Source of the DNA: Betaproteobacteria bacterium
GTDB taxonomy: Bacteria; Pseudomonadota; Gammaproteobacteria; Burkholderiales; SHXO01
Direction: 5' to 3'
NCBI GenBank assembly: GCA_031379405.1
Contig: JANNFC010000121.1
Coordinates: 1-52,454 of the forward strand
DNA: 52,454 nt
Both the position numbers and the translations under genes were made by a program. A model generated the notes under the pieces. It was not told where the DNA came from. It ran no database searches and worked only from the letters and a program-made list of their open reading frames with translations. Of the stretch, positions 3,455-27,691 are shown piece by piece (the first letter of the stretch is position 1; each line of letters begins with the position of its first letter).

Positions 3455-6400
3455 CTATCGAGCGTGAATTTGGCCTAGATGGCGCAGCGTTTGAGCCGAC
3501 TGAAATCGAGAGCCCTGTGCTTCGAATCTGGACCAGGCTGCTTCAAGATCCTCCGCGCTTCTCATGCGAATCCCCCGTTCGCGATGAACGACGGCGGCGA
3601 GATACGGCGCATCAAGCTCACGTGCAGCTTCCAGCGCGCGCTCCCAGGCACGCTGGGCACGACGAGTCGACCCTTTGTTCCAATATAGGCATCCTTCAAG
3701 ACACATAGCCACGGGCGCGGCACCCGCATAGAGTCGGGCAATTCGGCGAAGCGCCCTCCAGGTTCGAACGGCCTGTCGATAAGCACTGCGTTGCTCCAAC
3801 TGTGTCGCGCTATCAAGTTTCGCCAGCGCCAACCACGCCTTGGCGTCATAGACGCTGGCGGCAAGCGAGGGTAAGATCGCGTGCTGACGTAGTAATCGCT
3901 CTCCCAATTCAATGTAATGATCAGCCTCCTGCAGATTCCCCTGCCACAAGGCACATACCGATAGTTTGCCATAGCAATAGCACACGACCTGGAAATCAGG
4001 CGCCACTTGAAGGACCTCGATCGCGGATAAAAGCGCACTGGACGCCAGATCGAATTCGCCGCGCTCCATGTGAATCACGGCATCAAAAGGACGGGCGTAG
4101 GCGCTGACGACGGCATCGTTTGCCTCCTCGCCCAGTTTCCCAAACTCGACAGAAAACTCTCGCGGATAGTCCAGATCTCCCCGTGCGTACTGAATGCATG
4201 CCAGTGCGCCACGGGCTGTGGCGCGTTCTCGCACCTTTCCCAGAGACTTGTAGCGCTCGTCGGCCGCCTCAATGGTGCCAATCGCCTCGCGCCATCGTCC
4301 CGCCGCGATCTGATGCACACCCATGCCCAATGCCGCCGTCGCGATCGAAACCGGATCGCCCAGGCGATGCGCGAAATCCACAGCCCGCTTATGATATCGC
4401 TGAGCGATGTTGGAGAACCCCAGAACATTCAGGGCCAAGGCGAGGCCTGAGGACGCCATGGTAGTCGCGATTCCAAGGTTCCGATTCTCGGCCCAATTCA
4501 GTGTCGTCAGGATGTCTAGAAGATAACTCTCTTGGTCGCGGAAGAAATCCATCCAACATAACGCGATCAACGCATCGATGCGTTCCTGTTCGGCGTTTCC
4601 GGGTTGCTCATTCCTGAGAGCGGGTTGGTGCCATCGGATTCGATGCCATGCTTGCACCAAGATCTGGCCAACGATACGCAGCCGCACGCCAGCGCGTGAC
4701 CTGGGATGATGGTGACCCAGGAGGCTAAGCGCACTCAACAGGTGTGTTCCCGCCGCATCGTACTGTCCCAGTCTGTACAGTACTTCACCGATCTTTCGTT
4801 CCACGCTCGCTCGTTCAACCGGGTCCCACTTGTCGCCCAACTCGGTCGAAAAGCTGCGCACCGCTTCGCGAAAGTAGGCAAGGGCCTCCACATCCGAGGC
4901 CATACGCGCGGCCTGATCTCCTGCCTTGAGTAGGTAGTGTTGCGCCTTCGGCAAGTTTTGGGCGTGCACGAAATGGTGCGCCAGGAGCCCCGTGAATTCC
5001 TCCCTCCTGTCAGGAAACAAAGATTCGATTGCCTCGGCAACCCGCTGATGCAGTTCACGCCTTCGCTCCACCAGGATGCTGTGATAACTGGCCTGTTGCA
5101 CGAGTACATGCTTGAAGATGTACTCCTGCTCCGGTATCTGACGACGCTTTCGTATGAGATCGATGTCCTGTAACTGCAACAGTGCCTGGTCCAGCTCCGA
5201 TGTCGCCTCATCTATAGCCTGCAGAATGCGACGATAGAAACTGCGTCCGATGATCGCCGCCAATCGCAGGACTTTCTTGACGTCGTCTTCCAGGCGATCG
5301 ATGCGCGCCAGGATGAGCGTCTCGATCGTGTCCGGGAGATCTATGGCATCCACGCCATCACGTGCGTCGGTTCGGCTCGATGGCGAAGGCGTGGGCGATT
5401 TATGGGCCTCTTGCAAGGAGCGAGCAATCTCCTCGATGAACAGGGGATTGCCCTCCGCTTTACGCAGAATCAAGCTCCGCAGCACCGATGTCAGTTGCCT
5501 GGCGCCGAATAGATTCTCCACCATGTGATTTGCCTCGCTATTCGAGAGCGGACTCAGCAAGATCTCTAGGTACCACTGTGAGTGGTCTCGAATCGCCAAC
5601 TGCCGCAGCCTGGTGCAGGGCGTCTCCGGATCCGGCCGTCCGGCGAACAGTATCAGCAGGGGAACGCCTCCAATCAATGGCAGCAAGTGCTCCAACAGAG
5701 CGCTGGACGCGGCATCGGCCCAATGCCAGTCTTCCAGATGAAGTACGACGGGGTGCTTCCTGGCCAGGCAATCGAACAATCTGCGGGCAGCGATAAAGAT
5801 GCGTCCCCGTACATCCGTAGGCGTGAGGTGCTCGACGAGCCCCTTTGCGACCATCGGCAGTTCCAAACCCATCAGCATGCCGAGGAAAGGCAGAAGTCCC
5901 GGCCCTTCACTACCAAAGTGGTCCGCGACAAAGCTTTCCAATTTACGCCAAGCCGCCTCGCCCGCCTCAAGTTCATCCAGGCCTGCGGCCGCGCGTAGGA
6001 TGTCGATGAAGGGTCCGTAACTAAAATTGCATCCAAAGGACATGGCATGCCCTTCCAACCAAAGTACATGCGGCGGTTGGCGATGCCGAAGCTCGCGCAG
6101 TAATCTCGATTTCCCCAATCCGGCCTCGCCGATCACTCCGATGACGCTACCTTGCCCTGCGTATAACCTCGCGATGCGCTCGCTTAGACGTGCAAGCTCC
6201 TGCTCACGTCCTATCATCGGTTGCATTTCGTCTTGAATTGCCGTCACGTCCCGTGAAGCGTGGCTGCGAGCGTCTGTGAGGCGAAACACCGGAACGGCCC
6301 TCTCGATGCCTTTGACTTTGCGCTCGCCCAGTACGTCGCAGTCGAAATGCTGGCGAATGTTCGCTCGTGTGGATTCGGTGAGAAGAATCTCGCCGGGTGC

Positions 6401-7225
6401 CGCCAGGTGCTGTATTCGTGCTGCTAAATTTGTCGTATCGCCGATAGCGGTATAGTCCATGCGCAAGTTGTCGCCGATCTTTCCGACGATCACCGGGCCC
6501 GTGTTCATGCCAATTCGCAATGGCACGCGGCCCGATGTCTTCTCCACTGCCTGTGCATGCAGTAAACGCCTTATCGCCAAAGCAGCATTCGCCGCTCGAT
6601 GAGCGTGATCTTCATGCGCGATGGGAGCACCAAACAACGCCATGAAACCATCGCCAAGAAACTGGTTGAGCGTGCCCTCGTATCGATGGATTTCGACCAA
6701 GGCGGCATCGAAGAATCTGTTGAGGAGGCGGTGCATGGCCTCGGCACCCATCGCATGGGCGATGCTGGTGGAACCTACGATGTCGCAAAAAACCACCGTA
6801 ACTTGTTTGCGCTCTCCTTCGATCGCGGCATGTAAAACGAGAATTTTTTCAGCGACGTAGGGTGGCGTATAAGAGGCGGGCGGGCGCTTCAAAACTTCCG
6901 GCTGATTGGGAAGCTTTGGCTTGCCGCACTGCGGACAGAAATTCTGCTGCGGCAAGCGCGGTGCGTAGCAGGCGTCGCACTTCTCGGAAAACGCAACCCC
7001 GCAGCGCGAGCACGAGGGCGCTAACGGGTCGTTCTCCCATTGACAGGTCGGACACAACATAGACGAGTGTTGTGATGCTCGTGAGAAGGACTCAGAGTAA
7101 TTGGCGTTTGCGGGGTAGTCAAACAATCCATAGATGAGACCAAGCCCGAACTTCTGGCAGGCGCGCGAAATGGGGTGGCTTCGCCAGCGCGATGCTAAAC
7201 TCCGCGCCAAACCGATATGCTGCAC
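3455..7225 (-). CDS. multidomain signalling protein: double zinc ribbon, class III adenylate/guanylate cyclase, AAA/STAND ATPase, TPR-like repeats
   Basis: CPTCQ...CSRCG...CDAC...CPQCG zinc ribbons. Cyclase core VTVVFCDIVGST...FLGDGFMALFGAP...GMNTGPVIVG. Walker A GEAGLGKS, then a long helical repeat region. The GTG at 7225 may be an over-extension; ATG at 7060 (MLCPTCQ) is an alternative start. Confidence 0.85.
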   Translation of the reverse strand: MQHIGLARSLASRWRSHPISRACQKFGLGLIYGLFDYPANANYSESFSRASQHSSMLCPTCQWENDPLAPSCSRCGVAFSEKCDACYAPRLPQQNFCPQCGKPKLPNQPEVLKRPPASYTPPYVAEKILVLHAAIEGERKQVTVVFCDIVGSTSIAHAMGAEAMHRLLNRFFDAALVEIHRYEGTLNQFLGDGFMALFGAPIAHEDHAHRAANAALAIRRLLHAQAVEKTSGRVPLRIGMNTGPVIVGKIGDNLRMDYTAIGDTTNLAARIQHLAAPGEILLTESTRANIRQHFDCDVLGERKVKGIERAVPVFRLTDARSHASRDVTAIQDEMQPMIGREQELARLSERIARLYAGQGSVIGVIGEAGLGKSRLLRELRHRQPPHVLWLEGHAMSFGCNFSYGPFIDILRAAAGLDELEAGEAAWRKLESFVADHFGSEGPGLLPFLGMLMGLELPMVAKGLVEHLTPTDVRGRIFIAARRLFDCLARKHPVVLHLEDWHWADAASSALLEHLLPLIGGVPLLILFAGRPDPETPCTRLRQLAIRDHSQWYLEILLSPLSNSEANHMVENLFGARQLTSVLRSLILRKAEGNPLFIEEIARSLQEAHKSPTPSPSSRTDARDGVDAIDLPDTIETLILARIDRLEDDVKKVLRLAAIIGRSFYRRILQAIDEATSELDQALLQLQDIDLIRKRRQIPEQEYIFKHVLVQQASYHSILVERRRELHQRVAEAIESLFPDRREEFTGLLAHHFVHAQNLPKAQHYLLKAGDQAARMASDVEALAYFREAVRSFSTELGDKWDPVERASVERKIGEVLYRLGQYDAAGTHLLSALSLLGHHHPRSRAGVRLRIVGQILVQAWHRIRWHQPALRNEQPGNAEQERIDALIALCWMDFFRDQESYLLDILTTLNWAENRNLGIATTMASSGLALALNVLGFSNIAQRYHKRAVDFAHRLGDPVSIATAALGMGVHQIAAGRWREAIGTIEAADERYKSLGKVRERATARGALACIQYARGDLDYPREFSVEFGKLGEEANDAVVSAYARPFDAVIHMERGEFDLASSALLSAIEVLQVAPDFQVVCYCYGKLSVCALWQGNLQEADHYIELGERLLRQHAILPSLAASVYDAKAWLALAKLDSATQLEQRSAYRQAVRTWRALRRIARLYAGAAPVAMCLEGCLYWNKGSTRRAQRAWERALEAARELDAPYLAAVVHRERGIRMRSAEDLEAAWSRFEAQGSRFQSAQTLRHLGQIHAR

Positions 7226-12456: not shown

Positions 12457-12921
12457 TTATGCTTTCCACATCCTAGGGTCGAAAGAGAAGGGCGTCGGCT
12501 GTTCCAAGCGAAGCCTGCGGAAATCGGGATGGGCGGGATTCCCAACTACGTTGTGCTCGCGTGGGGCGATAACGGAGGGCACTCGAAGAAATGCCGTCGT
12601 GCCCTCGCGAAACCATCGTGCGCCAACTTCTTGTGTCGATTTGGGCGCAGGCTCCGTTCGCCAATCAGACGGAAGATCTTCGAGCTTGATTGTGGAAACT
12701 TGAATTGAAATGGGCGTTTCGCCTTCTAGCGCGACAAACTCTAGGTGCCGCGCTGCCGTGGGCAAATGCACAAAGGTCTCGAGACACGCCAGGGACAAAG
12801 TCTCGGAAAAATAGATGGCGCGAGTTCCCGGCGGATTCCAGCGCGCGCCATGCACAAAGTTACCCTCTCCGCTTAACGCGCTGAGCGCGTATCGCGTCTT
12901 GCTAAGGCGCCAGAGATTCAA
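12457..12921 (-). CDS. RES domain toxin (RES family NAD+ phosphorylase) of a type II TA pair
   Basis: The RES signature order is present (GARWNPPG...YFSETLSLACLE). About 150 aa. The TTG start overlaps the stop of the upstream antitoxin gene (TTGA). Confidence 0.8.
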   Translation of the reverse strand: MNLWRLSKTRYALSALSGEGNFVHGARWNPPGTRAIYFSETLSLACLETFVHLPTAARHLEFVALEGETPISIQVSTIKLEDLPSDWRTEPAPKSTQEVGARWFREGTTAFLRVPSVIAPREHNVVGNPAHPDFRRLRLEQPTPFSFDPRMWKA

Positions 12922-13412
12922 ATGCTCTCGCTATGCTCGATTCGATAGAGAAGTTTGCGAACTTCCTCCGCGCCCGCTTCCGTCATCATTTCTTCGATTG
13001 GAAGGCGCTGGTTGAGGCCTATTTGGGCTTCACAAAGCCACTGTAGGGCCGCTTCTCTCGATTCGAAGACTTCCTCCGCCAGTCCGACCAGGCCGGCCAC
13101 TCGATAAAGGCGGTCGCTCTGCGCAAGCGACAAGCGCGTTTGGGCAGAGCGCATGCGAGACAAGGTTCGTTGAGTCACATCGAGTATCGTGGCGAGCCGC
13201 TCGTCGCTAAGCGCGAACCCATTCTTTAGGTGCGTTACTGCCGCGAAGGGCAAACCCCCACGCAAAATATCCGAAACGTTCAGACTGGTTGGGGCTTTTC
13301 GGCCTCCAGCGGGAGACCCACCTAGAAGCTCAAGGGTGTGCGAGGGCGACATGATTATCCACGGACTAGACAAAAGTCGCTCCATGATACGACAGTTAGC
13401 TAGTCGGCTCAA
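12918..13412 (-). CDS. Xre/MbcA/ParS-type antitoxin with a DUF2384-like C-terminal domain
   Basis: LSDERLATILDVTQRTLSRMR helix-turn-helix-like segment, then ALQWL...LNQRLPIEEM...AGAEEVRKLL, typical of DUF2384. It sits directly upstream of the RES gene and is translationally coupled to it. The true start is possibly ATG at 13352 rather than TTG at 13412. Confidence 0.75.
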   Translation of the reverse strand: MSRLANCRIMERLLSSPWIIMSPSHTLELLGGSPAGGRKAPTSLNVSDILRGGLPFAAVTHLKNGFALSDERLATILDVTQRTLSRMRSAQTRLSLAQSDRLYRVAGLVGLAEEVFESREAALQWLCEAQIGLNQRLPIEEMMTEAGAEEVRKLLYRIEHSESI

Positions 13413-16507: not shown

Positions 16508-16795
16508 GTGAAAGAAATTCCAATCTCCGACGCGAAGAACTCCCTGACAAGCCTGGTACATCAAGCCGAAGCGGGTAAACCGGTTCGGTTGACCAGAAGA
16601 GGCAAACCCGTTGCGGTTCTACTCTCAAATACTGCGTATTGTCGTCTGGAGCAAAGTAAACCACCTCAGGACATCTGGCAGTTTGTCGAGCGTTGGCGCT
16701 CAGAGCTACCCGCGAATCTCCATGAACTCCGGTTCAGTGTGGCCATACTGGATACCAGCACTCGCAAGACCCAACTCTCAGTTTTTCTGTGGTGA
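16508..16795 (+). CDS. Phd/YefM family type II antitoxin (no intact partner toxin downstream)
   Basis: The N-terminus MKEIPISDAKNSLTSLVHQAEAGKPVRLTRRGKPVAVLLS is the canonical Phd/YefM fold signature. GTG start. The gene downstream is a cupin, not a toxin. Confidence 0.8.
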   Translation: MKEIPISDAKNSLTSLVHQAEAGKPVRLTRRGKPVAVLLSNTAYCRLEQSKPPQDIWQFVERWRSELPANLHELRFSVAILDTSTRKTQLSVFLW

Positions 16796-21233: not shown

Positions 21234-21507
21234 GTGAGGGTGGCTGCGCCCGATTCCGGTCACTCGGATCCAAAAGGTGTTGAGCGGTACCGAGACTATT
21301 TGTATCGCTACGCTTTACTTCGCCTACGCGACGAAGCGCGCGCGGAAGACGTCGTGCAGGAAACTCTGCTCGACGCTATTCAGAGCGACGCTCTTCGCTG
21401 GCAAGTCGTCCCTGAAGACCTGGCTCACCGGAATTCTCAAGCACAAGATCATCGACACCTATCGCCGCCATCCCGCCAGAAAGGATGAAGACGAGGATCG
21501 GTTGTAA
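21234..21507 (+). pseudogene. ECF-type sigma-70 family sigma factor remnant (frameshifted, lacks region 4)
   Basis: One frame gives ERYRDYLYRYALLRLRDEARAEDVVQETLLDAIQS (region 2.1/2.2). The continuation, TLFAGKSSLKTWLTGILKHKIIDTYRR (region 2.3/2.4), is in the +1 frame from about 21388. A stop at 21505-21507 follows an acidic linker. No region 4 and no anti-sigma gene follow. Confidence 0.7.
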
Positions 21508-21585: not shown

Positions 21586-21610
21586 ATCCAGCATAATAGC
21601 TCCGCCGTAT
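21586..21610 (+). promoter_or_regulatory. ATCCAGC-N13-CGTAT motif upstream of precursor gene 1 (candidate ECF-type promoter)
   Basis: Identical 7-mer and 5-mer, at identical spacing, to the motif at 23892-23916 upstream of precursor gene 2. xxATCC-N16-CGTAT has the geometry of ECF -35/-10 elements with a CGT -10 core. Confidence 0.5.
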
Positions 21611-21691
21611 AAGCCATACGGTGCGTGCACCGTGTGCCCTCGCACGCGAGTGGCAACGCCAACCAAACTAACCTAAATTGGAGATCAGACC

Positions 21692-22021
21692 ATGACTCGG
21701 AACAAAGCATTGACTCTCGCACTTGGCACCGCCTTCGCCGCGACCCTTGTTGCCTCCCCCGTATTGCGCGCTGCGGATAACCCCTTCGAGATGGAGTCCA
21801 TCAAGAGCGGCTTCCAGGTAGCGGACAACAAGGGTAAGGAAGGCGCCTGTGGCGGCGACAAGAAGAAAGAGGGCGCTTGCGGCGGTGATAAGGCCAAGGA
21901 CGGCGCTTGCGGCGGCGACAAGAAAAAAGAGGGCGCCTGCGGCGGTGATAAGAAGAAAGAGGGCGCCTGTGGCGGTGATAAGAAGAAAGAGGGTGCCTGT
22001 GGTGGAGACAAGGGCAAGTAA
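21692..22021 (+). CDS. secreted repeat-type RiPP precursor: signal peptide plus six KEGACGGDKK repeats (EGxCG, HvfA-like metallophore precursor)
   Basis: GGAGA Shine-Dalgarno sequence upstream. Sec signal peptide MTRNKALTLALGTAFAATLVASPVLRA/AD. Six in-frame 10-aa repeats, each with a single Cys. Lies immediately upstream of the DUF692 and DUF2063 genes. Confidence 0.8.
   Translation: MTRNKALTLALGTAFAATLVASPVLRAADNPFEMESIKSGFQVADNKGKEGACGGDKKKEGACGGDKAKDGACGGDKKKEGACGGDKKKEGACGGDKKKEGACGGDKGK
21836..22015 (+). repeat. 6 x 30-bp in-frame tandem repeat encoding K(E/D)GACGGDK(K/A/G)
   Basis: Read directly. The copies differ mainly at synonymous third positions (TGT/TGC, GGC/GGT, GAC/GAT, AAG/AAA). 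Confidence 0.95.
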
Positions 22022-22225
22022 CAACGCTTTAGGCGCTTAGGGGCCAAGGGTTGACAGAACTGGCGAAGACAATGATGCGACGATACTTTCCCCCGGGGGT
22101 CTACAAGGGGGCCACCCTCTGTTCATTCCTGGGGGATAAACAAGGGGGTGCTCCTCCTGTTCGTAGCAAGCATTTTGGCCGCACAGTCTCGACTGTCTTG
22201 GCTCCGGCGAGGCCAGCTTAAGTTT

Positions 22226-23092
22226 ATGGCCGGACCCCGGAACAACCCCGCGGGCGTGCAAGGCGCGGGGTTGGGTCTGCGGCGGGAATTGATTCCGTCG
22301 CTCAAAACCGCAGTCCCCAACGCCATCCAGTTTTTCGAGCTTGCCCCGGAAAACTGGATGGAGATGGGTGGGTCGAGCGCAAAGAACTTGCGCTTTTTCA
22401 GTGAGCGCTACCGCTTGACTTGCCACGGACTGTCGCTTTCCCTTGGCGGTCCTCAACCTCTCAATGAAGTGTTTCTCACGCGCGTGAAGCGCTTCCTGCG
22501 CGAGCACGATGTGGCGTTATATTCCGAGCACCTCGCCTACACCACGGACGAAGGTTATCTTTACGACCTGTTGCCGATCCCGTTCACGTCTGAAGCGGTG
22601 CGCTATGTCGCCGAGCGCATCAAGCGCACGCAAGACATTCTCGAACGCCGCATCGCCGTGGAGAACGCTTCCTACTACGTTGAAGCGCCGATTAGCGAAA
22701 TGAGCGAACTGGAGTTCGTGAACGCGGTATTAAGCGAAGCGGACTGTTGGCTGCATCTGGACGTGAATAACGTGTACGTGAATAGCGTAAATCACGCGTT
22801 CGATCCGCTCACATTCCTGCGTGGGTTGCCCGCGGAAAGAGTGGTCTACCTGCACATGGCCGGTCATTACAAAGAGGCGGACGATCTCCTGGTGGACACC
22901 CACGGCGCCGATGTGATCGATCAGGTTTGGTCACTGCTAGGGGTCACTTACGCCTTGTTCGGTGCCAAGCCTACGCTGTTGGAACGGGACTACAACATCC
23001 CGCCGCTCAAGGATCTTGCCCTGGAAGTGGAGCGCATCGCCCAAATGCAACGTCCGTACGCGCAGCAACAGCATGTCCGCAGCGCGTCCTGA
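22226..23092 (+). CDS. DUF692 family multinuclear non-heme iron oxidase (MNIO; MbnB/HvfB/BufB-like RiPP maturase), cassette 1
   Basis: GLGLRRE N-terminus, HGLSLSLGG, SEHLAY, VENASYY, LDVNNVYVNS, HMAGH, DTHGADV and TLLERD are the DUF692 TIM-barrel metal-ligand pattern. 288 aa from ATG 22226; the ORF track opens at GTG 22148. Confidence 0.85.
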   Translation: MAGPRNNPAGVQGAGLGLRRELIPSLKTAVPNAIQFFELAPENWMEMGGSSAKNLRFFSERYRLTCHGLSLSLGGPQPLNEVFLTRVKRFLREHDVALYSEHLAYTTDEGYLYDLLPIPFTSEAVRYVAERIKRTQDILERRIAVENASYYVEAPISEMSELEFVNAVLSEADCWLHLDVNNVYVNSVNHAFDPLTFLRGLPAERVVYLHMAGHYKEADDLLVDTHGADVIDQVWSLLGVTYALFGAKPTLLERDYNIPPLKDLALEVERIAQMQRPYAQQQHVRSAS

Positions 23093-23846
23093 ACGGCCGT
23101 CTTTCCAGCGCTATCAAGCAAGCTTTACGGCGCATATTCGTGACCCGAAGGCCAATCCCCGGCCGGCAGGCGTCAGCGCGCGGCGCATGCGTGTGTACAA
23201 CGAGTTACTGTTCAACAACGTGGAAAGCTTCCTTCTGGCGTGCTTTCCCATCACCCGAGAAATTCTGGGCGTTAGACGCTGGTCCAAGCTGGCGCGTGAG
23301 TTCTTCGCCCGTCACAAGTGCCAGTCACCGTTGTTTCGCCAGATACCGGAGGAGTTCGTCCGTTTTCTTCAATCCCGGCGCACGCTACCCATGGAACCGG
23401 TCTTCCTCGCCCACTTCGCCCACTACGAGTGGGTCGAGTTGGAGGTGGATATCTCCTCGGCAGAGCCGGACTGGGATCGCATCGATCGGGAAGGCGACCT
23501 TATACAGGGCTGTCCCGTGCTCAATGGCGCGCTTCGGGTGCTGGAGTATCCCTTCCAGGTCCATCGCATCGGGCCAAAGTTTCAACCCAAGGTGCTCGAC
23601 CCGGAGCCCACGCGCATCGTCGTATTCCGCAATCAGGACGACATGGTTCGGTTCGTCGTCATCAATGCTGTCACTGGGCGCTTGCTGGCGCTTATTTTGG
23701 AGAGGGAAGTCACCGGGGAGCAAGCCTGCCTGCAAATTGCGCAAGAGCTTGGTCATCCCAATCCACCGGCTGTTGTTGCGGGTGGCCGCGACATTTTGCA
23801 GGGACTCCGAGAGCAGGGCGCGATCCTGGGTGCTAGGCGTAAATGA
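23073..23846 (+). CDS. DUF2063 domain protein (HvfC/BufC-like MNIO partner), cassette 1
   Basis: FQ..F...IRDP, VYNELLFNNVESFL...FP and F..F....P pattern typical of the DUF2063 N-terminal domain. ATG 23073 overlaps the end of the MNIO gene by 20 nt. Confidence 0.75.
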   Translation: MSAARPERPSFQRYQASFTAHIRDPKANPRPAGVSARRMRVYNELLFNNVESFLLACFPITREILGVRRWSKLAREFFARHKCQSPLFRQIPEEFVRFLQSRRTLPMEPVFLAHFAHYEWVELEVDISSAEPDWDRIDREGDLIQGCPVLNGALRVLEYPFQVHRIGPKFQPKVLDPEPTRIVVFRNQDDMVRFVVINAVTGRLLALILEREVTGEQACLQIAQELGHPNPPAVVAGGRDILQGLREQGAILGARRK

Positions 23847-23891
23847 GCATGCACGCCGGTTTCGAAAGGTTTAATCTCCTGGGGCGAGTGA

Positions 23892-23916
23892 ATCCAGCCA
23901 GCCTCCGAAATCGTAT
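23892..23916 (+). promoter_or_regulatory. ATCCAGC-N13-CGTAT motif upstream of precursor gene 2 (candidate ECF-type promoter)
   Basis: Same motif and spacing as 21586-21610. It lies about 112 nt upstream of ATG 24029. Confidence 0.5.
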
Positions 23917-24028
23917 GTCCAGCAGGCGGCCTAGAGAGTCAAGCCCGACGATCTCTTGCGCCGTCCTGGTTAGTGTAGTGAGTACATCAGGCCTCGTCGG
24001 GCGTGATTTCCCCATTCGGAGAGAGCCA

Positions 24029-24286
24029 ATGACTACCAATACGAAACGAACCGGTGTCGCCCTCGCGGCCGCCGCCGCCGCCCTGTTTATGTCCGGTTGC
24101 GCCAGTACCGGCGGCGGCGAGAGCGCAACTGCCGCCAAAGTAATGTGCGGCGGTGTGAATGCCTGTAAGGCCCAAGGCGATTGCAAGACAGCCAGTAACG
24201 GATGCAAGGGCCAGAATGCCTGCAAGGGCCAAGGCGTCGTACAGTTGTCCAAGGATGCTTGCGTTCAGCAAGGCGGAAGGGTCTAA
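24029..24286 (+). CDS. bufferin-like Cys-rich RiPP precursor (6 Cys in the mature part) with a probable lipoprotein signal peptide
   Basis: GGAGAG Shine-Dalgarno sequence 5 nt upstream. MTTNTKRTGVALAAAAAALFMSG/C lipobox-like signal. The mature region has duplicated G-x-N-A-C-K-x-Q-G modules (CGGVNACKAQGDC...CKGQNACKGQG) and a C-terminal C..QGG. Lies directly upstream of the second DUF692/DUF2063 pair. 85 aa. Confidence 0.8.
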   Translation: MTTNTKRTGVALAAAAAALFMSGCASTGGGESATAAKVMCGGVNACKAQGDCKTASNGCKGQNACKGQGVVQLSKDACVQQGGRV

Positions 24287-24292
24287 GTCCCT

Positions 24293-24331
24293 AAAGAACG
24301 GGCTCTGCACAGGAACAGAGCCTGTTCTTTT
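24293..24331 (+). terminator. stem-loop with T-rich 3' side between precursor 2 and its MNIO gene (candidate attenuator or partial terminator)
   Basis: AAAGAACGGGCTCTG-CACAGGAA-CAGAGCCTGTTCTTT(T): a 15-bp stem with one G-U pair. The GC core is followed by TTCTTTT. It starts 7 nt after the precursor stop codon. Confidence 0.5.
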
Positions 24332-24338
24332 CCACGTT

Positions 24339-25205
24339 ATGAATCCGCCTTCCCAGTCTTTGACGCGGCCGAGCCTTGGCTTCGGGCTGGGTCTGCGCAC
24401 GGACCACTACGAGGACATCCTCAATAGCCATCCGCAGGTGGATTGGCTGGAGGTGATCTCCGAAAACTATCTTATCCCAGGCGGAAAACCGCTCTATTTC
24501 CTGGACCGAATCCGCGCCGAATATCCCTGCGTGATGCACGGGGTGTCGCTGTCCATTGGCAGTGTCGATCCTCTGGATCGAGAATACCTGATGCAGCTCA
24601 AGGCGCTCGCACAGCGCATCGAACCCGCGTGGATCTCTGATCACTTGTGCTGGACGGGGATGGCTGGAAAGAATTCGCACGACCTACTCCCGCTGCCGTA
24701 CACCGAAGAAGCTCTCAAGCATATCGCCCAGAAAGTGCGGCAACTACAAGATTTTCTTGGGCGGCGCATTCTGCTGGAAAACGTGTCGAGTTACGTGAGC
24801 TACAAGGAATCGACCCTTACGGAGTGGGAATTCCTGAGCGCTTTGACGCGGGAAGCCGATTGCCTACTGCTGCTCGACGTCAACAACATCTACGTTTCTG
24901 CCTTCAACCATCAGTTCGACGCGGAAGAGTTTCTGCGTGGCGTGCCTGCTGAGCGGGTGCAACAGATCCATCTAGCAGGTCACAGCGACTGCGGCGACCA
25001 CCTCATCGACACTCACGACGCCGATATCATCGATCCGGTGTGGGCGCTTTACGGCAAGGCCATCGAACTGCTGGGCCCCGTTTCCACCATGATCGAGCGT
25101 GACGACCACATTCCGCCGCTGGCCGATCTGGTGGCCGAATTGAGCATCGCGCGCGGCATGTTGGATAAGTCGTTACACAAGGCGCCGCAACAGGTGGCGG
25201 CATGA
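24339..25205 (+). CDS. DUF692 family multinuclear non-heme iron oxidase (MNIO; BufB-like RiPP maturase), cassette 2
   Basis: GFGLGLRTDH, HGVSLSIGS, SDHLCW, LENVSSY, LDVNNIYVSA, HLAGH, DTHDADI and MIERDD. 288 aa from ATG 24339, the same length as the cassette 1 paralog. Confidence 0.88.
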   Translation: MNPPSQSLTRPSLGFGLGLRTDHYEDILNSHPQVDWLEVISENYLIPGGKPLYFLDRIRAEYPCVMHGVSLSIGSVDPLDREYLMQLKALAQRIEPAWISDHLCWTGMAGKNSHDLLPLPYTEEALKHIAQKVRQLQDFLGRRILLENVSSYVSYKESTLTEWEFLSALTREADCLLLLDVNNIYVSAFNHQFDAEEFLRGVPAERVQQIHLAGHSDCGDHLIDTHDADIIDPVWALYGKAIELLGPVSTMIERDDHIPPLADLVAELSIARGMLDKSLHKAPQQVAA

Positions 25206-26053
25206 GCGCACTACAGACACTGCAACGCGAATTTCAGGACTTCGTCCTGGATGGCCGAGCTGAGATCGTGCAAAGAGTCGTCGGAACCTCGAGCGTCGAC
25301 CCCGCGCGCCGCTTGGGCGTTTACTACGATGCCTATCGTTTGCGGCTGATAGAAGCGCTGCAAACCGACTACACCTCCCTGAAAATCGTAATGGGCGAGG
25401 ATGACTTCGCCCAATCCATGGGCGCCTTTGTGGAGGCGACGCCATCGGTGCATCGTAATCTGCGTTGGTACGGCCAGTCTTTGCCAGAGTTCTTGCGCAC
25501 GCGCGCGCCCTCTGCGGAGCAGCCATGGTTGTGGGAGCTTGCGCTGTTCGAGTGGACCATCGCGCTCGCTTTCGATGCCGCCGATGAGCCTGTCCTGACC
25601 TTCGACGATCTGGCCGCCATGGACTCAGGAATTTGGCCATACCTGACCTTTAAATTTCATCCTTCGCGGCAACGCTTGTCACTGCGCACCAACGCCGCGA
25701 GTTTGCGCAAGGCGGTGGATGAGGAGGCGCCGATTCCCCCACCGGAACGCCTCGCGCAACCCATTCAGTGGTTGCTCTGGCGTAAGGACCTCACGGTCAT
25801 GTTTCGCTCGCTACTGCCGGAAGAGGCGTGGGCGCTGGACACTGCCCATGCCGGTGGTAACTTTACCGAGTTGTGCGAAGGTCTTTGTCAGTGGGTCGCT
25901 CCGGCGGCGGCGGCGGGCCGCCTTGCCGGGATGTTGCGCACTTGGGTGGATGATCAACTCATTGCGGCGGTGGGGTCTCCCGCGTCCGTAGGGTGCGTTT
26001 TAGGCACCGTGGCCGTGCATGCACACCTTATTGCGTCAGGGCGCGGACCGTAA
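25202..26053 (+). CDS. DUF2063 domain protein (BufC-like MNIO partner), cassette 2
   Basis: LQ.EF..FVL...., YYDAYRLRLIEALQTDY, F..FV...PS..RNLRWYG..LPEFL. ATGA start/stop overlap with the MNIO gene. The last ~25 codons read through a REP-like element and into the 3' end of the convergent gene. Confidence 0.78.
   Translation: MSALQTLQREFQDFVLDGRAEIVQRVVGTSSVDPARRLGVYYDAYRLRLIEALQTDYTSLKIVMGEDDFAQSMGAFVEATPSVHRNLRWYGQSLPEFLRTRAPSAEQPWLWELALFEWTIALAFDAADEPVLTFDDLAAMDSGIWPYLTFKFHPSRQRLSLRTNAASLRKAVDEEAPIPPPERLAQPIQWLLWRKDLTVMFRSLLPEEAWALDTAHAGGNFTELCEGLCQWVAPAAAAGRLAGMLRTWVDDQLIAAVGSPASVGCVLGTVAVHAHLIASGRGP
25988..26012. repeat. degenerate REP-like element copy
   Basis: GTAGGGTGCGTTTTAGGCACCGTGG matches the family seen at 8178-8221 (reverse complement GTAGGGTGCGTTCCACGCACCACGG) and at 11166-11189. 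Confidence 0.45.
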
Positions 26054-26483
26054 TCGCCGTCTTGAACGTCTTTTTCTTCTTGTTCTCCGAGACGATCAGT
26101 TCCAGCGCTATCTCGTCCCCTTCCTTGAGCGGTCCCTTCAACCCCAGCAACATCAAATGGATGCCCATGGGCGCCAGCGTGACCGTCTCGCTGGCCGGTA
26201 GCTCCAGCAACTTAAGCTGGCGCATGCGCATGATGCCCTCCTGCATGCTGGTGCTATGTATTTCGACTGTTTTCGCCACGCTGGTTTTCACCGCCAACAA
26301 CTGCGCTCGTTTAGGACTGGTGATCGTGAGATAGGCCGCGCCCACCGTTTGCCCCGGAACGGTGGCTCGCGCCCATCCGTCCGATATCTCCAAGGCTGCC
26401 GCGTTGGTGGCGCACAACCACAGTCCAAGTATGTAGCCCGACACCTGCGACTTCCCGATCCATCTACTTGTTCTACTTGTCAT
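26028..26483 (-). CDS. copper chaperone PCu(A)C (DUF461 family)
   Basis: Signal peptide, then DGWARAT.PG...GAAYLTI and the H(x)nM...M..HxM copper motif region (EIHSTSMQEGIMRM...APMGIHLML). The likely start is ATG 26483; the ORF track extends to 26570. Confidence 0.8.
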   Translation of the reverse strand: MTSRTSRWIGKSQVSGYILGLWLCATNAAALEISDGWARATVPGQTVGAAYLTITSPKRAQLLAVKTSVAKTVEIHSTSMQEGIMRMRQLKLLELPASETVTLAPMGIHLMLLGLKGPLKEGDEIALELIVSENKKKKTFKTAITVRALTQ

Positions 26484-26539
26484 TGCGTGTCCCGGCCATT
26501 GCGAGCATACGCTCGTATAATTCGTATTTTGCCATCGGC

Positions 26540-27691
26540 ATGCGCCCACACCTAGTTTCTCTGTCTGCATTGCTCTCTTTTGCCTTGCTCGCGCTGACTT
26601 TTTCCGCGCCGGGCTTTGCGAACCCTAATCCCACCCACCCCACCATAGCCGCCAAGGCTTACTACCTGCTCGACCTGCAAACCAATCAGGTACTCGTGGC
26701 CCATCGCGCCGACGAGCGCGTGGAGCCGGCTTCCCTCACCAAGCTCATGACGGCCTATGTGGTATTTGGCGCCCTCAAGCAGAAGCTTGTCACCACGGAG
26801 CAGCGCATCACGCCCTCGGTCAAGGCGTGGAAAACCTCCGGTTCGCGCATGTTTATCGAGCCCAATAGGCCCGTGGCTATCGACGAGCTTCTGCGCGGGA
26901 TGATCATTCAATCGGGCAACGATGCCAGTGTCGCCCTTGCCGAAGCGGTGGCGGGCGACGAGACCGCCTTCGCCGGCATGATGAATCGCGAAGCTCAGCG
27001 CCTCGGGTTGAAGAATTCGCACTTCGTCAACGCCACCGGATTACCGGACGACAAGCACTACAGCTCGGCGGCCGATCTGGTGCGCCTGGCGGCGGCGGTC
27101 ATTCGCGATTTTCCGGAGCACTATCCGCTCTACGCGATGCGCGACTACACCTATAACGACATCACTCAGCCCAATCGCAACCTGCTGCTCGGCAAGGATC
27201 CCTACGTGGATGGCGTGAAGACCGGATTCACCGAGAATGCCGGCTATTGTCTCATCGCGTCGGCGAAGCGGGAGACACGGCGTCTGGTCGCCGTCGTGTT
27301 GGGTGCCGCCTCGGAAAATTCGCGCGCCATCGAAGCGCAGAAACTGCTCAACCACGGCTTCCAATTCTTCGAGAATGTCCGCTTGTACGAGAAGGACGCG
27401 CCACTATCGAAGCTGGAAGTGTGGAAAGGCAGCGAGCGCGAAGTGCCCATCGGCTTTCACCAGGACTACATCGTCACCATACCGCGTGGACAGAAGGATC
27501 AACTCAAGGCGAAGATGGAGAGTGTCCAGCCATTGCTCGCGCCCATCAGCACGGGGCAAGTCGTGGGTACCCTGAGACTCACGTTTGCTGGTAAATCCTA
27601 TGGCGAGCGCTCCGTCGTATCGCTGGCCAACGTTGGAATCGCCAATTTCTTCGCGCGCACCTGGGACGGTATTCGTCTGCGGTTCAAGTAG
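26540..27691 (+). CDS. D-alanyl-D-alanine carboxypeptidase (serine-type, PBP5/6 family)
   Basis: Signal peptide. SxxK (ASLTKLMT), SGN (QSGNDAS) and KTG (VKTGFT) active-site motifs. PBP5 C-terminal domain. Confidence 0.9.
   Translation: MRPHLVSLSALLSFALLALTFSAPGFANPNPTHPTIAAKAYYLLDLQTNQVLVAHRADERVEPASLTKLMTAYVVFGALKQKLVTTEQRITPSVKAWKTSGSRMFIEPNRPVAIDELLRGMIIQSGNDASVALAEAVAGDETAFAGMMNREAQRLGLKNSHFVNATGLPDDKHYSSAADLVRLAAAVIRDFPEHYPLYAMRDYTYNDITQPNRNLLLGKDPYVDGVKTGFTENAGYCLIASAKRETRRLVAVVLGAASENSRAIEAQKLLNHGFQFFENVRLYEKDAPLSKLEVWKGSEREVPIGFHQDYIVTIPRGQKDQLKAKMESVQPLLAPISTGQVVGTLRLTFAGKSYGERSVVSLANVGIANFFARTWDGIRLRFK

Follow-up and report, generated by a model that had tools for sequence, protein, structure and literature searches.

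A probable compound captophorin locus with hvf-type and bufferin 2-type cassettes in tandem in an uncultured betaproteobacterial clade

Captophorin clusters, which pair a multinuclear non-heme iron oxidative enzyme (MNIO) with a PME1 partner, are found in about half of the Pseudomonadota reference genomes, and the basis of their specificity and their multiplicity within genomes are little understood. Those described include HvfA/HvfB/HvfC of H. influenzae, characterised in 2024, in which six cysteines of a precursor with AEGKCGEGKCG repeats are modified and the product binds Cu(I) (PMC11252979); the further repeat-type precursors FonA and NgoA (PMC13097082); and bufferins 1 and 2 of Caulobacter, also characterised in 2024, the second of which has its four central cysteines modified and its outer two joined as a disulfide (PMC11626156). 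Oxazolin was re-assigned in 2026 from an oxazolone/thioamide to a 5-thiooxazole, as in the bufferins (PMC13097082; bioRxiv 10.64898/2026.07.17.739211), and copper binding together with 5-thiooxazole chemistry is now documented in both subfamilies (PMC11626156, PMC11252979, PMC13097082). Here we describe a stretch of 52,454 nucleotides from an assembly labelled Betaproteobacteria bacterium (GCA_031379405.1, contig JANNFC010000121.1; hereafter the window) that probably carries a compound captophorin locus, namely two complete precursor–MNIO–partner cassettes of these two characterised subfamilies, which occupy a conserved slot of the chromosome in head-to-tail order.

A preliminary description, made from the sequence and a list of its open reading frames (ORFs), had placed six ORFs on the forward strand, with an overlap between each enzyme gene and its partner and with the blocks HG[LV]SLS, S[ED]HL, ENxS, LDVNN[VI]YV, H[ML]AGH and DTHxAD common to both MNIOs, and all of these were found where it had put them (Table 1). 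The hvfB and hvfC genes overlap by 20 nt (23073-23092), bufB and bufC by the 4 nt ATGA at 25202-25205, and the two MNIOs, equal in length, are 43% identical. Profile-HMM searches of the six proteins assigned both MNIOs to PF05114 and both partners to DUF2063. The preliminary description had assigned to each cassette an MNIO with a DUF2063 partner, and to one a repeat-type substrate and to the other a bufferin-type substrate with 6 Cys. These family calls cleared curated equivalog cut-offs, with five of the six proteins of the two cassettes counted here as equivalog-level matches.

On its profile scores cassette 1 is an HvfA/HvfB/HvfC (oxazolin, or 'Lys-Cys captophorin') set, which we file as a variant because none of the six HvfA repeats has the Lys typical of the family. 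HvfB scored 410.6 bits against the NCBIfam HvfB equivalog (cut-off 360) and failed the BufB equivalog (271 bits, cut-off 310), with E values of 1.7e-102 to PF05114 and 1.9e-77 to PDB entry 3BWW, and HvfC scored 279.5 bits against the NCBIfam HvfC equivalog (cut-off 142) and matched DUF2063 at E = 1.1e-26. The precursor consists, in order, of a Sec-type signal peptide (…PVLRA|ADNPF, judged by eye, with a cleavage site of the Ala-x-Ala type), a conserved NPFEMESIKSGFQVAD segment and six repeats of 10 residues (KEGACGGDKK), each containing a single Cys. Tandem Repeats Finder confirmed the repeat, with a 30-nt period (5.7 copies, 82% matches, 21842-22012; six [ED]GACG units), and the phmmer matches of the protein were precursors preceding HvfB in 60+ related loci.

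Cassette 2 is, by the same kind of evidence, a BufA2/BufB/BufC (bufferin 2, or 'Cys-Lys captophorin') set. Its precursor passed the NCBIfam BufA2 equivalog (81.3 bits, cut-off 60), the sole NCBIfam model to match it even at E ≤ 10, and matched no Pfam family at E ≤ 0.01, DUF2282 (BufA1) included. The DUF2282 expectation of the preliminary description thus gave way to BufA2, and identity with bufferin 1 was ruled out. The core holds six Cys, the central four each followed by Lys (Cys-Lys dyads, in NACKG-type sites), and the N terminus has, by eye, a lipoprotein-type signal peptide with an LFMSGC lipobox that relatives keep as LF[MVAI][SAT]GC, which makes lipid anchoring of the product probable. 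BufB scored 388.6 bits against the BufB equivalog (cut-off 310), failed the HvfB equivalog (275.6 bits, cut-off 360) and matched PF05114 at E = 1.4e-111. BufC is more diverged: it scored 64.1 bits against PF09836 (cut-off 27.2; DUF2063 E = 1.4e-17) and only 30.9 bits against the HvfC model, and a PDB sequence search returned no match. In a profile–profile alignment (hhalign) its residues 34-257 aligned to positions 35-254 of the HvfC profile at 97% probability, covering both domains, and on this alignment BufC is a full two-domain partner. Homology stops short of its last ~25 residues, and this extended 3′ end of bufC overlaps the 3′ end of the adjoining gene for a PCu(A)C copper chaperone by 26 nt.

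Table 1. Features of the captophorin locus and its surroundings, in window coordinates.
Feature	Position	Strand	Product (aa)	Basis or remark
Pseudogene: extracytoplasmic function (ECF) sigma remnant and last 12 codons of a zinc-binding anti-sigma (ZAS)	21255..21507	+		tblastn with intact sigmas of related loci
Promoter-like motif ATCC-N16-CGTAT before hvfA	21586..21610	+		82 nt upstream of hvfA ATG; putative ECF-type promoter
hvfA-like precursor	21692..22021	+	109	ORF; 30-nt tandem repeat; phmmer to precursors preceding HvfB
204-bp structured insertion between hvfA and hvfB	22022..22225	+		found in this genome only; RNA folding
hvfB, MNIO of HvfB / Lys-Cys captophorin type	22226..23092	+	288	NCBIfam HvfB; PF05114
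hvfC, PME1 partner (DUF2063 + RRE-type C-terminal domain)	23073..23846	+	257	NCBIfam HvfC; PF09836 + PF22106
Promoter-like motif, copy 2, TGAATCC…CGTATG, before bufA2	23892..23916	+		113 nt upstream of bufA2 ATG
bufA2, bufferin-2 type precursor	24029..24286	+	85	NCBIfam BufA2
bufB, MNIO of bufferin (Cys-Lys captophorin) type	24339..25205	+	288	NCBIfam BufB; PF05114
bufC, diverged PME1 partner	25202..26053	+	283	PF09836; profile–profile alignment to HvfC
PCu(A)C periplasmic copper chaperone gene	26028..26570	−		PF04314 5.9e-33; convergent

Both MNIOs have kept their active sites. We took the ligand set of MbnB (H54, H90, E133, D163, N166, H192, D208, H210 and E239; PMC9060507) and mapped it through PDB alignments. 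HvfB retains all of it as H67, H102, E146, D179, N182, H210, D224, H226 and E253, and BufB as H67, H102, E147, D180, N183, H211, D224, H226 and E253. D255, which stands in each for the catalytic base D249 of FonB (PMC13097082), is likewise kept, and so are the counterparts in both enzymes of the site 3 residues N175, D242 and H244 that are essential in HvfB (bioRxiv 10.64898/2026.07.17.739211). Ka/Ks was 0.05-0.19 for each of the six genes (Nei-Gojobori method, window against 4-5 related loci, Ks of at least 0.7), and 0.05-0.09 for hvfA. Because all iron ligands and the catalytic Asp are retained and Ka/Ks is this low, neither cassette is a decaying copy, and the reading of one of them as a decaying duplicate, which the preliminary description had allowed for, was dropped.

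The tandem is rare overall and conserved within a small uncultured clade. Our comparison sets were the 80 closest HvfB loci, from species-representative genomes, and the 80 closest metagenomic BufB loci. None of the former contains a second MNIO gene (60 of the 80 reach at least 2.5 kb past hvfC) and none of the latter an HvfB-type gene (34 of the 80 reach at least 3 kb upstream). A neighbourhood survey for co-occurring cassette types, which the preliminary description had proposed, found the tandem in the window and in six further loci (L numbers denote related loci): L165 from ENA; L166, L170 and L172 from Logan; L169 from JGI; and a metagenome-assembled genome (MAG), GCA_046714645.1, in which it is divided between L167 and L081. 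For both window enzymes the nearest relatives (77-88% identity) lie on the same contigs, and the related MAGs are labelled Burkholderiales by NCBI; an exact-sequence look-up with the window BufB gave no match. In five of the seven dual loci in which the region is present, each cassette comes with a precursor and a promoter-like motif of its own. As a local departure from this plan, L170 (1-3434) has hvfB-hvfC, the motif and bufB-bufC without bufA2, with only ~120 nt between hvfC and bufB. In another relative, L171, bufC is split.

The literature searched holds no description of a tandem hvf/buf2 layout; the supplementary tables of the MNIO landscape paper are accession lists only, and the Microbulbifer paper does not describe two-enzyme clusters. 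The preliminary description had considered the co-regulated double cassette and its repeat precursor to be experimentally uncharacterised. This holds for the natural EGACG precursor and for the tandem layout, but the repeat-type system itself is already characterised (HvfA, FonA, NgoA), and two co-regulated captophorin clusters in one organism have a precedent in buf1 and buf2 of Caulobacter, both members of the copper-induced SigF regulon (PMC11626156).

The slot in which the cassettes lie is flanked on one side by slmA, a HAD hydrolase gene, argB and hsp20, and on the other by the PCu(A)C gene, dacC, a D-amino-acid aminotransferase gene, ybeD, lipB and lipA. It is filled by hvfABC alone in Thiobacillus, L073, L021, L001 and others, by bufA2BC alone in L082/L085, L093, L096, L102, L103 and others, and by both cassettes in the tandem clade, with PCu(A)C directly after hvfC or bufC in related loci of all three kinds. 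The flanking proteins of the window score highest against the tandem clade, next against buf2-only loci and then against hvf-only loci. No sigma or hvf remnant was found in the buf2-only relative L082.

Recognition residues separate the two enzymes. In FonB the substrate is read by Arg15/Arg16 and by Phe250 beside the catalytic Asp249, and enzymes acting on Cys-Lys sites have Asp at the Phe250 position (PMC13097082). The window HvfB has RR at 19-20 and D255-Y256, that is, Tyr for Phe at the F250 position, and the window BufB has R-T and D255-D256. The combination of RR with DF occurs in 72 of 85 loci with HvfB-type enzymes, and that of R[VT] with DD in 83 of 88 with BufB-type enzymes (DD alone in all 87 with a readable site). 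FonBC does not process sites in which a charged residue follows the Cys, NACKG included, and accepts a synthetic EAACGEGACG in vitro (PMC13097082). Because HvfB, its Tyr aside, and BufB keep the recognition residues of their own subfamilies, each enzyme pair is predicted to act on its own precursor, so that the two pairs would not be redundant.

The Tyr at the contact position of HvfB goes with a change in its substrate. Among the 80 closest HvfB loci, Lys usually precedes the Cys, and 78 of the enzymes have Phe (L068 has Tyr instead, and L075 Asp). Ala precedes the Cys at six or more sites of HvfA in the window and in L165-L169, L166 also retaining two EGKCG units, and Tyr takes the place of Phe in the window and in L165-L170 wherever the site is readable, the L170 precursor lying off its contig. 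This correlation of Lys-to-Ala in the substrate with Phe-to-Tyr in the enzyme is one evolutionary event in a single lineage and does not amount to statistical proof.

The motif ATCC-N16-CGTAT has only two matches on both strands of the window, one before each precursor gene, where 0.24 would be expected by chance. It is invariant in alignments of related loci upstream of hvfA and of bufA2; the copy on the bufA2 side is kept in L165, L166, L081 and the buf2-only L082, and it also stands before bufA2 in many buf2-only loci. Of the 24 exact matches across 168 loci (~2 Mb), 18 are correctly oriented and at most ~350 nt upstream of a gene for a precursor or an MNIO. That both cassettes have the motif speaks for their co-regulation. 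A scan for sigma-70 promoters and terminators found fewer matches than in shuffled sequence, and none of use in the spacers between genes. Right after the putative −10 element of hvfA, at 21618-21650, lie the palindromes ACGGTG..CACCGT and CTCGC..GCGAG, which are kept in L165, L167 and L168 and could form an operator or a 5′-untranslated stem-loop.

Just upstream of the first motif are the remains of a regulator. By tblastn the sigma remnant occupies two frames, one covering residues ~11-55 (21255-21386) and the other ~59-83 (21394-21468), and Pfam recognised only Sigma70_r2 fragments in it. The remnant frame runs on as HPARKDEDEDRL, which matches the C terminus of the L165 anti-sigma (…FHRHPARKDEEEDRP) and implies, from the gene lengths and spacer of L165, a deletion estimated at ~520 bp together with a frameshift. 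No further sigma or anti-sigma copy was found in the window. Because the adjacent ECF sigma/anti-sigma pair is destroyed, control in this genome would be encoded elsewhere or lost. The sigma gene is intact just upstream in L165 and L166 (a ZAS anti-sigma with H-x3-C-x2-C is described for L165), split by frameshifts in L169 (4631-5151), internally deleted in L096, where it lies between hsp20 and bufA2 with the anti-sigma intact, and absent from L167, L168 and L082. This pattern, seen in several independent relatives, suggests that the dedicated ECF regulator has been lost repeatedly next to the slot. Deployment of the two cassettes as one unit, as first proposed, is supported by the shared motif and by the retention of the tandem in six other loci; in this genome the destroyed neighbouring regulator cannot be the source of co-regulation.

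The insertion between hvfA and hvfB is missing from L165-L168, where the two genes are 3-62 nt apart. It folds with a minimum free energy of −85.8 kcal/mol (z = −3.2) and has a partial copy in an unrelated intergenic region of a related MAG (L167 1268-1340, 79-85% identity over 40-56 nt), and it may be a small repeat or an element resembling a miniature inverted-repeat transposable element. Rfam recognised no RNA family in the whole window.

With the gene identities, ligand and specificity residues, purifying selection, shared motif, distribution and sigma remnant observed here, a compound captophorin locus is the explanation that we consider likely. In the scheme we propose, which takes its chemistry, copper binding, localisation, enzyme–substrate specificity and regulation from the literature, HvfB and the RRE-containing HvfC would act in the cytoplasm, oxidising each of the six repeat cysteines in HvfA to a 5-thiooxazole, and modified HvfA would then be exported by Sec and released as a soluble, low-complexity periplasmic copper binder rich in Lys, Asp and Glu. 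In BufA2, BufB and BufC would make 5-thiooxazoles of the four central cysteines, those of the Cys-Lys dyads, the two outermost Cys would be joined in a disulfide like that of Caulobacter Buf2, and modified BufA2 would be exported and anchored to lipid through its lipobox. One sigma factor would switch on both cassettes together, each through its own copy of the motif. The same chemistry on two scaffolds is expected because both subfamilies are now assigned a cysteine-to-5-thiooxazole conversion. The products would therefore differ in scaffold and probably in location, one soluble and the other a lipoprotein, and not in chemistry, and since the re-assignment of oxazolin the earlier view of them as 'chemically distinct' lacks support in the literature.

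Several observations weigh against this explanation. Precursor 1 matches no Pfam family and no NCBIfam model even at E ≤ 10, and Lys is found at none of its six sites, all of which read [ED]-G-A-C-G, retaining the acidic residue, Gly, Cys and Gly of the 5-mer. The HvfA signal peptide and the BufA2 lipobox were called by eye, without a predictor. DoxX, common in such clusters, is encoded neither in the locus nor elsewhere in the 52-kb window; in hvf clusters DoxX (HvfX) is frequent, not universal. The reading of ATCC-N16-CGTAT as an ECF promoter is drawn from its position and conservation only, and Thiobacillus loci with an intact sigma gene have no motif before hvfA, their closest matches (one mismatch) lying upstream of the sigma gene. 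We accordingly rejected the idea that the motif precedes hvfA wherever the sigma is present; sigma, anti-sigma and hvfA seem to be co-transcribed in those loci. Expression in this genome is also made uncertain by the death of the cis-encoded sigma/anti-sigma pair and by the 204-bp structured element wedged between hvfA and hvfB.

These last points raise the question of whether the locus is silent or being lost in this genome, its intact ORFs reflecting a recent inactivation. We consider this unlikely. The sigma/anti-sigma remnant, the insertion and the lack of a sigma-70-like promoter in the intergenic regions all fit it, as do partial losses from the slot in relatives (hvf absent from L082, bufA2 absent from L170, bufC split in L171), but the six ORFs are intact with every catalytic residue and both promoter-like motifs are perfect. 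Moreover, relatives in which the sigma is missing (L167/L081, L168) or frameshifted (L169) keep intact cassettes, which argues that a cis-encoded sigma is dispensable, and the low Ka/Ks also speaks against silencing, although it is blind to a recent event. A second alternative concerns the division of labour: the cassettes might cooperate, both enzyme pairs acting on both precursors or BufBC completing HvfA, in one pathway rather than two parallel ones. The MNIO landscape paper suggests that where a cluster has two MNIO genes, long precursors may require the action of both enzymes, and BufBC is kept in L170 without bufA2, where it would have another substrate or be idle; several related loci likewise have bufB-bufC and no detectable precursor. 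Cooperation is nevertheless very unlikely, given that the specificity residues, the Tyr of HvfB aside, fit each enzyme's own subfamily, that FonBC fails where a charged residue follows the Cys, as in the NACKG-type sites of BufA2, that the window HvfA is short, with six sites, and that a precursor and motif for each cassette is the rule in the dual loci.

A third alternative concerns the purpose of the products: the soluble and the anchored peptide would supply copper rather than detoxify it, feeding PCu(A)C and cytochrome oxidase assembly. PCu(A)C adjoins the cassette or cassettes in all three slot configurations and in many lineages, the surroundings are housekeeping genes with no metal-resistance island and no efflux genes in 52 kb, and a chalkophore role has been raised in the literature as one possibility for oxazolin. 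However, PCu(A)C is convergent and not co-transcribed, its adjacency may be plain synteny, and the published phenotypes point to protection against excess copper and to induction under copper stress (PMC11626156), so we judge a supply role improbable. Within the compound locus itself, a bolder and improbable extension is that the Lys-to-Ala/Phe-to-Tyr pair arose in nature by co-evolution as a switch in specificity, keeping the two maturation systems apart. One cell could then make, in parallel, a soluble copper sponge of high capacity and a copper site anchored to lipid, possibly feeding PCu(A)C, and the repeated loss of the sigma would reflect a shift to expression that is constitutive or rewired in some other way.

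Taken singly, the cassettes are unremarkable representatives of large and well-studied families. What is new is the conserved head-to-tail arrangement of cassettes from two subfamilies, with a copy of one promoter-like motif before each, the natural EGACG precursor together with the matching Phe-to-Tyr change in its enzyme, and the swappable slot with a repeatedly lost regulator. The tandem clade offers a natural test case, in which two subfamilies with their own precursors occur together with a paired change at a contact previously probed by mutagenesis only, and a slot filled by either cassette or both, with repeated ECF loss, bears on the exchange and rewiring of stress systems. Known chemistry and function are unchanged, and the value of these findings is incremental.

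Related loci show other arrangements of the same genes. L119 (4303-11692), one of the 80 BufB loci compared above, has two divergently oriented buf2-type cassettes, and L088 (896-1780) two divergent bufA2 genes with one common enzyme pair. In L097 (756-3430) and L155 (1098-3650) bufB-bufC comes after sigma and anti-sigma genes, and no precursor gene could be detected between them; L109, L121 and L129 have bufB-bufC with no bufA2 match; the substrate in loci of this kind may be encoded elsewhere or be too diverged. L083/L084 (1-18900) places a BufB relative (72% identical) and BufA1-like precursors inside a metal-resistance island with MerR, a CusCBA-like resistance-nodulation-division pump, a P-type ATPase, a multicopper oxidase, MerB and an insertion sequence, in contrast to the housekeeping context of the window. 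The Thiobacillus HvfA homologues of L013 (9581-9967) and L018 (9554-9976) have an EF-hand-like insert (DANKDGKISKEEF…) between Cys motifs, matching the Buf_EGKCG|EF-hand chimaeras already in the literature.

In the window itself, the true start of the PCu(A)C gene is probably an internal Met, because its relatives are 147-158 aa long. The 52 kb otherwise contain housekeeping genes and no copper efflux genes. Upstream of the locus lie genes for a 1256-aa adenylate/guanylate cyclase-AAA-TPR protein (3455-7225, − strand), a RES toxin/Xre antitoxin pair (12457-13412, − strand) and a Phd/YefM-type antitoxin (16508-16795, + strand).

Among the known systems, methanobactin (MbnABC) shares with the window the enzyme superfamily, the iron ligand set and a Cys-derived copper ligand, but the window MNIOs score 30.5 and 58.7 bits against an MbnB cut-off of 325, the precursors here have Sec signal peptides in place of a leader peptide, the methanobactin product is an oxazolone/thioamide, and no mbn transport genes are found here; the low scores and the signal peptides rule out membership. 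HvfABC (oxazolin), FonABC (fontiphorin) and NgoABC (gonophorin) resemble cassette 1 in the HvfB and HvfC equivalogs, in the Arg pair equivalent to FonB R15/R16 and in the catalytic Asp. From these Lys-Cys (Buf_EGKCG) captophorins cassette 1 differs in having [ED]GACG instead of EGKCG, a single motif in each repeat of 10 residues as against two in 17, a precursor without the N-terminal Cys pair, Tyr for Phe at FonB F250, no DoxX gene and a second cassette of the other subfamily directly after it.

Cassette 2 shares with bufferin 2 of Caulobacter vibrioides (BufA2B2C2; Buf_6/12Cys) the BufA2 and BufB equivalogs, six core Cys with four central Cys-Lys and an Asp at the position that contacts the substrate Lys, and neither has DoxX. 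Unlike that system, the window BufA2 has a lipoprotein-type signal peptide, reported in ~16% of Buf2 precursors, its cassette is joined to an hvf cassette instead of standing alone, and the ECF association is with a ZAS anti-sigma and not with SigF/NrsF. As regards regulation, the Neisseria sigmaE/MseR operon NMB2140-2145 encodes a sigma and a ZAS anti-sigma with an EGKCG-type (gonophorin) cluster (PMC2893595), an arrangement of which the sigma and anti-sigma genes upstream of the L165 cassettes are reminiscent; its consensus GTMAGBWTT-N12-13-CGTCTAAH contrasts with the putative ATCC-N16-CGTAT here, where the sigma/anti-sigma pair is a pseudogene. In the Caulobacter SigF regulon one ECF sigma governs two captophorin clusters in one cell (PMC11626156), and in the window two such clusters stand side by side, each with its own copy of the motif.

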